DNA of 64,000 bases from Escherichia coli (GTDB lineage Bacteria; Pseudomonadota; Gammaproteobacteria; Enterobacterales; Enterobacteriaceae), in assembly GCF_003018255.1 (NCBI RefSeq), contig NZ_CP027440.1, one strand, 5' to 3'. The notes under the pieces are model-generated. The model saw nothing but the letters and a program-made list of their open reading frames with translations, was not told the origin of the DNA and searched no databases. Made by a program: the position numbers and the translations under genes. This document shows, in pieces, positions 55,705 through 56,924 of this stretch (the stretch's first letter is position 1; each line of letters begins with the position of its first letter).

Positions 55705-56586
55705 ATGGATCTGACCCAACTGGAGATGTTCAACGCGGTTGCCGAAGCTGGCAGCATTACCCAGGCTGCAGCAAAAGTGCATCGCGTGCCGTCGAATCTC
55801 ACTACCCGTCTACGCCAGCTGGAAACAGAACTGGGGGTTGATCTGTTTATTCGCGAGAATCAGCGTTTACGTCTCTCGCCTGCCGGGCATAACTTTTTAC
55901 GCTATAGCCAACAAATTCTCGCGTTAGTGGATGAAGCGCGGAGCGTTGTCGCTGGCGATGAGCCGCAAGGTTTATTTTCTCTTGGTTCGCTGGAAAGCAC
56001 CGCAGCAGTGCGCATTCCGGCCATGCTGGCGGAATTTAACCGTCGTTATCCCAAAATTCAGTTTTCACTTTCCACCGGCCCTTCCGGCACTATGCTGGAA
56101 GGTGTGCTGGAGGGAAAACTGAATGCGGCGTTTATTGATGGACCCATTAACCATACTGCCATCGACGGGATACCGGTATACCGCGAGGAACTAATGATCG
56201 TCACGCCACAAGGACATGCGCCAGTCACCCGTGCCAGTCAGGTGAATGGCAGTAACATTTATGCCTTCCGCGCCAATTGTTCGTATCGTCGCCACTTCGA
56301 AAGCTGGTTTCATGCTGACGGTGCCGCTCCGGGAACTATTCACGAGATGGAGTCTTATCACGGGATGTTGGCCTGTGTGGTCGCAGGAGCAGGCATTGCG
56401 CTTATTCCACGCTCTATGCTGGAAAGTATGCCGGGGCATCACCAGGTTGAAGCGTGGCCGTTAGCTGAGCAATGGCGTTGGTTAACAACCTGGCTGGTCT
56501 GGCGTCGTGGTGCGAAAACGCGTCCGCTTGAGGCATTTATTCAACTGCTGGATGCGCCTGACTCGGCAAAACAGGGTTACCAATGA
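55705..56586 (+). CDS. yneJ: LysR-family transcriptional regulator YneJ (293 aa)
   Basis: N-terminal HTH plus LysR substrate-binding domain. Confidence 0.92.
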
Positions 56587-56924
56587 GCTATTTTTGATAG
56601 TTCATGCGGCTAATATGCTCTATATAGTGATGCTCCGATGACTTATGACTATATGGGGCAAATATGGTTACGCCAGTAAGCATCAGCAATTTCATCTCAC
56701 TTCCTGATGATTTTCCCGTTCGCAATATTGCACCTCAGGTAAAAGAAGAACAGGCCCCCTTCCTGATCGTCATTAAAATGTGATGTTAACAACTCTCTGA
56801 TGCGTGACAGAACAACCGTCAGAGAGATGGAAATGCGATCCAGATCACAAATGCATTGTATTCACATCATTAACCGTTTTAAGATCATTTCATCACTTTT
56901 TCGCAACTCACCCGATAATCTGTT

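Follow-up and report, generated by a model that had tools for sequence, protein, structure and literature searches.

In Escherichia coli K-12 a gene, yneK, lies between yneJ and ydeA, and the question raised by the locus described here is what became of that gene in the window, by which we mean the whole 64,000-nucleotide stretch of E. coli DNA that was analysed. The preliminary description of this DNA had placed the end of yneJ at 56586 and the start of ydeA at 56925, had noted that a K-12 gene of about 370 codons is missing between them, and had tentatively read a short open reading frame (ORF) at 56664-56783 as the 5′ remnant of that gene, joined through a deletion of about 1 kb to sequence further downstream. 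The coordinates are correct and enclose an interval (56587-56924) of 338 bp. The K-12 gene was described accurately as well: in the record of K-12 strain HMS174, yneK has 371 codons and sits in an interval of 1342 bp, and comparison of the two intervals (338 bp versus 1342 bp) confirmed that an intact yneK is missing from this place. The short ORF was verified (ATG to TGA, 39 codons; translation MVTPVSISNFISLPDDFPVRNIAPQVKEEQAPFLIVIKM). When the interval was aligned with the corresponding K-12 region, two collinear blocks were obtained on either side of the missing yneK body. The slot between ptrR/yneJ and ydeA is conserved, with the same gene order in K-12, in E. coli carrying a second class of yneK alleles (class 2), in E. 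albertii loci and in the window. The parts of the locus are given below; L010, a metagenome contig, and L011, from E. coli 2017-02-2CC, are two loci with class-2 alleles.

55705-56586, + strand: yneJ/ptrR, LysR-type putrescine utilization regulator, intact, 293 aa (ORF list; RefSeq annotation of homologous loci; 97.2% nucleotide identity to K-12 ptrR)
56587-56663, + strand: ptrR-yneK spacer, the yneK upstream/leader region, kept (74/77 identical to K-12, 67/77 to the E. albertii locus)
56664-56748, + strand: what is left of yneK at its 5′ end, codons 1-28 and the first base of codon 29 (84/85 nt against class-2 L010, 79/85 against K-12)
56664-56783, + strand: 39-codon fusion ORF, YneK residues 1-28 plus 11 out-of-frame residues, EQAPFLIVIKM (TGA at 56781-56783, 7 nt beyond the old stop)
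56749-56756, + strand: 8-nt island AACAGGCC from yneK codons 348-350, kept or copied, out of frame (unique match in L011)
56757-56757, + strand: single C that neither parental breakpoint accounts for, either a 1-nt filler or the result of a later change in a C run (against L011 3075-4116)
56758-56776, + strand: yneK 3′ remnant, the last 19 nt including the native TAA (56774-56776), out of frame (19/19 against class-2 alleles, by L010 and by exact k-mer matches from L011 4098 onward; 17/19 against K-12)
56793-56826, + strand: hairpin directly 3′ of yneK, CTCTCTGATG...CGTCAGAGAG, kept, with no T tract after it (RNA fold, cross-locus comparison)
56836-56924, + strand: ydeA upstream region, unaffected by the deletion (89/89 identical to K-12)
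56925-58115, + strand: ydeA, L-arabinose MFS exporter, intact, 396 aa (ORF list; RefSeq annotation of homologous loci; 97.8% nucleotide identity to K-12)

The GC content of the whole window (1-64000) is 47.8%, which is below the figure expected for E. coli overall.

Breakpoints and parent allele

The two blocks were delimited by blastn of window positions 56300-57200 against the K-12 locus. The first (56302-56748, 95.5% identity) runs from the last part of ptrR across the spacer to nt 85 of yneK, and the second (56758-57200, 95.7% identity) comprises the last 19 nt of yneK, the following spacer and the start of ydeA; the similarity is well above anything that chance would give. Between them, nine window bases, AACAGGCCC (56749-56757), stand in place of 1012 K-12 bases. 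The 59 nt past the old stop codon (56777-56835) match K-12 at 47/59 positions, a difference of about 20%, and the 89 nt that follow are identical to K-12. Because these 59 nt are so unlike K-12, a closer parent allele was sought. The class-2 allele on contig L010 agreed with the window at 84/85 positions in the 5′ stretch, 19/19 in the 3′ stretch and 58/59 downstream, compared to 79/85, 17/19 and 47/59 for K-12. These matches identify the parent as a deeply divergent class-2 yneK allele and not one of the K-12 type.

A protein search that started from K-12 YneK recovered this second E. coli YneK class as a cluster of 138 member sequences (P0004) with 84% amino acid identity to the query; the dS between class 1 and class 2 genes is 0.58, roughly half of that measured against E. 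albertii. Among intact genes, the one closest to the remnant is the class-2 gene of 2017-02-2CC (WP_039021833.1, cluster P0004), which, unlike the remnant in the window, is full length at 371 codons. At 92.7%, the identity between the ptrR genes of this strain and the window is too low for the strain to be the immediate ancestor. K-12 yneK (b1527) shares with the window its slot, upstream region, start codon, and a recognisable last 19 nt and downstream hairpin, but it belongs to a different allele class from that of the remnant's parent, as the amino acid identity and dS values above indicate. About 90 bp upstream of ydeA the divergent block breaks off abruptly, and the stretch that matches K-12 at 47/59 positions gives way to about 185 nt (56836-57020) without a single K-12 mismatch. 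This sharp haplotype boundary suggests either an old recombination boundary or an introgressed segment.

The junction was then read against the class-2 gene in L011 (yneK at 3001-4116). After codon 28, 956 nt (L011 3086-4041) are missing; the next eight, AACAGGCC (L011 4042-4049, part of codons 348-350), are retained; and a further 48 nt (L011 4050-4097) are replaced by one C, after which the window sequence resumes at 4098. The octamer occurs once in the parental region (L011 4042-4049), 48 nt upstream of the right breakpoint, and MAFFT aligned it to the same motif in K-12. The net loss amounts to 1003 bp (blastn against K-12, with the junction compared to L011), in good agreement with the deletion of about 1 kb that had been proposed. 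A loss of 1003 nt, which three does not divide, puts the island and the gene's final 19 nt out of frame; the ORF passes over the native TAA (56774-56776) and closes with the TGA at 56781-56783. The downstream sequence to which the start of the ORF had been suggested to be fused is thus yneK's own 3′ end, out of frame, together with 7 nt past its stop. Relative to the full gene, codons 29-365 are missing except for the 8-nt island. Both ends of the gene are present, as in a pseudogene formed by internal deletion: 85 nt at the 5′ end, 19 nt at the 3′ end and the internal 8-mer are all kept.

From these alignments we consider it very probable that the interval is a yneK pseudogene that arose by an internal deletion of about 1 kb in an intact class-2 ancestor. 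In the history that we propose, an ancestor with an intact 371-codon class-2 yneK between ptrR/yneJ and ydeA would have undergone an illegitimate, non-homologous deletion without evident microhomology that took almost the whole coding sequence. The 956 nt past codon 28 would have been lost, the 8-nt island from codons 348-350 left behind or copied in, and the further 48 nt swapped for one C, giving the net 1003-nt loss and the frameshift. What is left is the yneK upstream region and start, 28 native codons, and 11 out-of-frame codons reading past the old stop as far as the next TGA, along with the post-yneK hairpin and an unaltered ydeA upstream region.

We infer that the deletion came about either in one complex event or in two successive ones. 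Comparison of the window junction with L011 revealed no visible microhomology at the breakpoints, and the junction has one C more than the simple product of two deletions would have. Slippage between short direct repeats was considered and rejected, as the CCT repeats near the small deletion would yield a product three C's shorter than observed. One deletion spanning L011 3086-4097, its gap filled by 9 nt copied through template switching from 48 nt upstream, has, in our estimate, slightly less than an even chance of being the correct description. Eight of the nine filler bases match a unique nearby site, and no genome with just one of the two deletions was seen among the sampled matches, whose listed coverage of the class-2 yneK query is 100% or else 8%. 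Two sequential deletions that left the island behind fit these data equally, however, and the matches viewed were a spread sample, so that rare intermediates may have escaped.

Downstream of the deletion, the hairpin at 56793-56826 has a predicted folding energy of -19 kcal/mol (z = -2.64, RNA fold of 56780-56845). The arms of its stem of 10-12 bp (CTCTCTGAyG...CGTCAGAGAr) are kept in the K-12, class-2 and E. albertii loci, and its loop and flanks vary. A search of 56300-57200 against Rfam gave no match at E <= 1, the hairpin included, and a terminator scan found no terminator-like site and did not call the hairpin. It may act either as a terminator without a T tract or as an RNA-stability element. 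A promoter scan returned two promoter-like sites, one of them at 56861-56888 upstream of ydeA, against 0.9 expected from shuffled sequences, a count that we judged not above expectation. Given that ydeA and its 89-bp upstream region are unaltered, no effect on arabinose export is expected, and the deletion probably leaves ydeA unaffected.

Loss versus gain of yneK

The opposite direction of change was also considered, namely that the short form is ancestral and that K-12-type strains gained yneK when about 1 kb of AT-rich foreign DNA was inserted. K-12 yneK is indeed AT-rich, with a GC content of 39.8% versus 51-54% for ptrR and ydeA. A search for YneK among 5.8 billion proteins returned 22 clusters, the named ones all from E. 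coli, Shigella or E. albertii, and an exhaustive profile search (HMMER) of 1.84 billion representative sequences recovered YneK fragments only. A degenerate 29-nt pattern for the yneK N-terminus that fits both K-12 and the window gave one chance match, in a Caldithrix MAG, in a collection of species-representative genomes that apparently lacks E. coli and its close relatives. By these searches YneK appears to be an orphan restricted to the genus Escherichia, and a gene without homologs outside the genus resembles acquired or de novo DNA at some depth. In addition, the named strains with the short allele (Nissle 1917 and O25:H4 and O6:K2:H1 strains) belong to phylogroup B2, an early-branching group.

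Several observations nevertheless speak against an insertion. The short form already holds the first 85 nt of the gene, its last 19 nt and an 8-nt internal piece, and the foreign DNA would have needed to land inside a pre-existing 39-codon ORF and to create a 371-codon frame in doing so. Full-length class-2 alleles match the remnant at 99%. Moreover, an intact ortholog occupies the corresponding site in the outgroup E. albertii. The gene for the E. albertii YneK (cluster P0010, 68% identity) lies between those for the LysR and MFS proteins in loci L007-L009, Logan contigs whose E. albertii label derives from the names of the members of the YneK protein cluster. The neighbours in these loci follow the order glsB-sad-yneJ-yneK-ydeA-marC-marRAB, as in E. 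coli, and the flanking genes are 83-85% identical to those of the window. A full yneK in the E. albertii slot indicates that the gene predates the split of E. coli and E. albertii and that the short form is derived. A recent transfer of yneK from E. coli to E. albertii is contradicted by the high divergence of both the flanks and the gene (dS about 1.2).

Intact copies of yneK are under purifying selection, as expected of a coding gene. Three pairwise comparisons gave dN/dS values of 0.146-0.164 (0.05 for ptrR and 0.01-0.03 for ydeA), and the 371-codon frame is kept in all 11 aligned yneK sequences. With an intact E. albertii gene in place and a dN/dS of about 0.15, the difference between the alleles reflects loss of a real gene and not an insertion elsewhere, and we regard a gain of yneK in K-12-type strains as extremely unlikely.

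Distribution of the short allele

A 66-nt probe spanning the junction (56722-56787) was found in 1115 of 5426 complete E. coli genomes, in all cases with 97% coverage and at least 95.5% identity, and none of the genomes matched by the probe has a full-length yneK. Queries of 901 bp and 338 bp each matched as one continuous stretch in the same 1114-1115 genomes. That the gap is an assembly or sequencing artefact in the window is vanishingly improbable, considering the identical junction in 1115 independently finished complete genomes. A roughly full-length yneK is present in 4246 of the 5426 genomes, nearly all of the K-12 type and about 85% identical to class 2 at the nucleotide level, and the class-2 gene itself is matched at 99% or more in only 19 records. 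The class-2 lineage survives almost entirely as its deleted form, and this and the deep yneK dimorphism with its sharp haplotype boundary were the mildly unexpected results of the analysis.

The exact version of the junction probe that occurs in the window is a minority (71/1117 records); the other 1046 records differ from it at about one base and include Nissle 1917 and the O25:H4 and O6:K2:H1 strains mentioned above. Over 16.6 kb the best match to the window was 99.4% identical, and its nearest relatives include the avian pathogenic (APEC) strains O78:H4 and APEC O2-211. The yneK pseudogenes annotated by RefSeq in Nissle 1917 (ECOLIN_RS31440) and strain 104 (DDV95_RS16900) have the same junction base for base, as well as the flanking genes and 39-codon ORF length seen in the window. 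Strain 104 is 99.4% identical to the window over the 338-bp interval. The Nissle copy, which is of the B2 type, has five base differences in the 5′ remnant and encodes Tyr at position 10, where the window encodes Phe. Two of the 1117 records with the deletion junction are labelled as plasmids, and queries with the wider region list eight places on plasmids; these are either chromosomal segments carried on plasmids or mislabelled replicons.

The deletion is old, lineage-wide and shared with an identical junction. In our proposed history the deleted allele would have had a single origin and would now be fixed in a large share of E. coli, corresponding to about 20% of the complete genomes. The B2-type short alleles have K-12-like and E. 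albertii-like bases at codons 10-12, where the window has class-2 bases. This pattern indicates that the remnant was reshuffled by recombination after the deletion, which weakens a strictly clonal picture of its single origin.

Other disruptions of yneK or its surroundings were also encountered. In E. coli FDAARGOS_1283 (NZ_CP070162.1), which has the short allele, a frameshifted transposase gene of the IS630-like element ISEc40 lies between ptrR and the remnant (L005 1956-2989), and this insertion parts the yneK remnant from most of its upstream spacer. E. coli 1070/13 (NZ_CP171474.1; L004 2863-3976) carries a frameshifted full-length yneK, an independent disruption. The protein search also returned large clusters of shortened YneK (P0011, P0016 and others), such as one of 3818 member sequences with a 258-aa form whose name comes from Shigella sonnei; some of these short forms may have been cut off by contig ends. 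The independent disruptions hint that yneK is often dispensable.

The 39-codon ORF and the YneK family

The reading of the 39-codon ORF as the 5′ remnant of yneK was borne out by its product, whose codons 1-28 correspond to the YneK N-terminus. Comparison of the 39-aa peptide with the N-terminus of K-12 YneK showed the anticipated similarity, with 27/28 identical residues and one substitution (Y10F), and the match to the class-2 YneK of 2017-02-2CC is 28/28, Phe10 included. Against the NCBIfam equivalog model NF033404 ('putative protein YneK') the peptide scored 47.3 bits (E = 1.4e-12), above the curated cutoff of 40 bits. The match covers model positions 1-33 of 371, which falls short of full length, and the true homology is limited to residues 1-28. 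On this evidence the ORF is predicted to encode a fragment of YneK and not a functional member of the family, and the remnant cannot encode YneK itself. The same assignment is already in public databases, where the pseudogene is known: the exact 39-aa sequence, which occurs on at least 1000 contigs, has been deposited under the name 'putative protein YneK [Escherichia coli]', and RefSeq annotates the corresponding site of Nissle 1917 and strain 104 as a yneK pseudogene, 'incomplete; missing C-terminus'. A literature search did not find a paper that discusses the yneK deletion.

The upstream spacer and start codon are retained, as is, 5 nt ahead of the ATG, a GGGG run resembling a Shine-Dalgarno sequence; the 39-codon ORF may therefore be transcribed and perhaps also translated. 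We asked whether the ORF might have become a new functional small protein with the hydrophobic tail PFLIVIKM. Neither its upstream region (74/77 identical to K-12) nor its start is damaged, the ORF has equal length in the window, Nissle 1917 and strain 104, and it is called as a protein on the contigs mentioned above. Given the close similarity of the short alleles (at least 95.5% at the junction), however, an intact ORF is expected even without selection. The tail is an accidental out-of-frame read, no family, structure or RNA match was obtained, ISEc40 sits just upstream of the remnant in one short-allele strain, and the site is a pseudogene in RefSeq. We thus find a functional small protein very unlikely; the 39-aa product probably has no function. 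The wider proposition starts from two very old yneK allele classes, of which the second persists mainly as the deleted form in B2 strains; it holds that loss of YneK was selected and not neutral, for instance as an adaptation to a host niche in view of the weak adherence association cited below, or that the 39-aa fusion is an expressed new micro-protein. It is given slightly more room but is still unlikely.

Searches with YneK itself provided few clues to its function. Nothing significant was found in Pfam (best DUF1140, E = 0.16, below its cutoff), among PDB sequences, in PADLOC (one weak SAVED match, E = 0.0046, for the E. albertii protein only) or in PHROGs (E >= 0.011). An AlphaFold2 model built from a shallow 11-sequence alignment (mean pLDDT 42.3, pTM 0.32) was too poor for a fold search. 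In K-12 the yneJ-yneK spacer was reported as an in vitro target peak in NtrC gSELEX (PMC8743547), and the presence of yneK showed a weak pan-genome association with adherence to bovine recto-anal cells, for which the authors had no explanation (PMC11540155).

The correct label for the 39-codon ORF would be a yneK pseudogene fragment and not a gene, a distinction whose importance is small beyond annotation. The shared junction, in turn, would serve as a clean presence/absence marker for a large lineage of E. coli.
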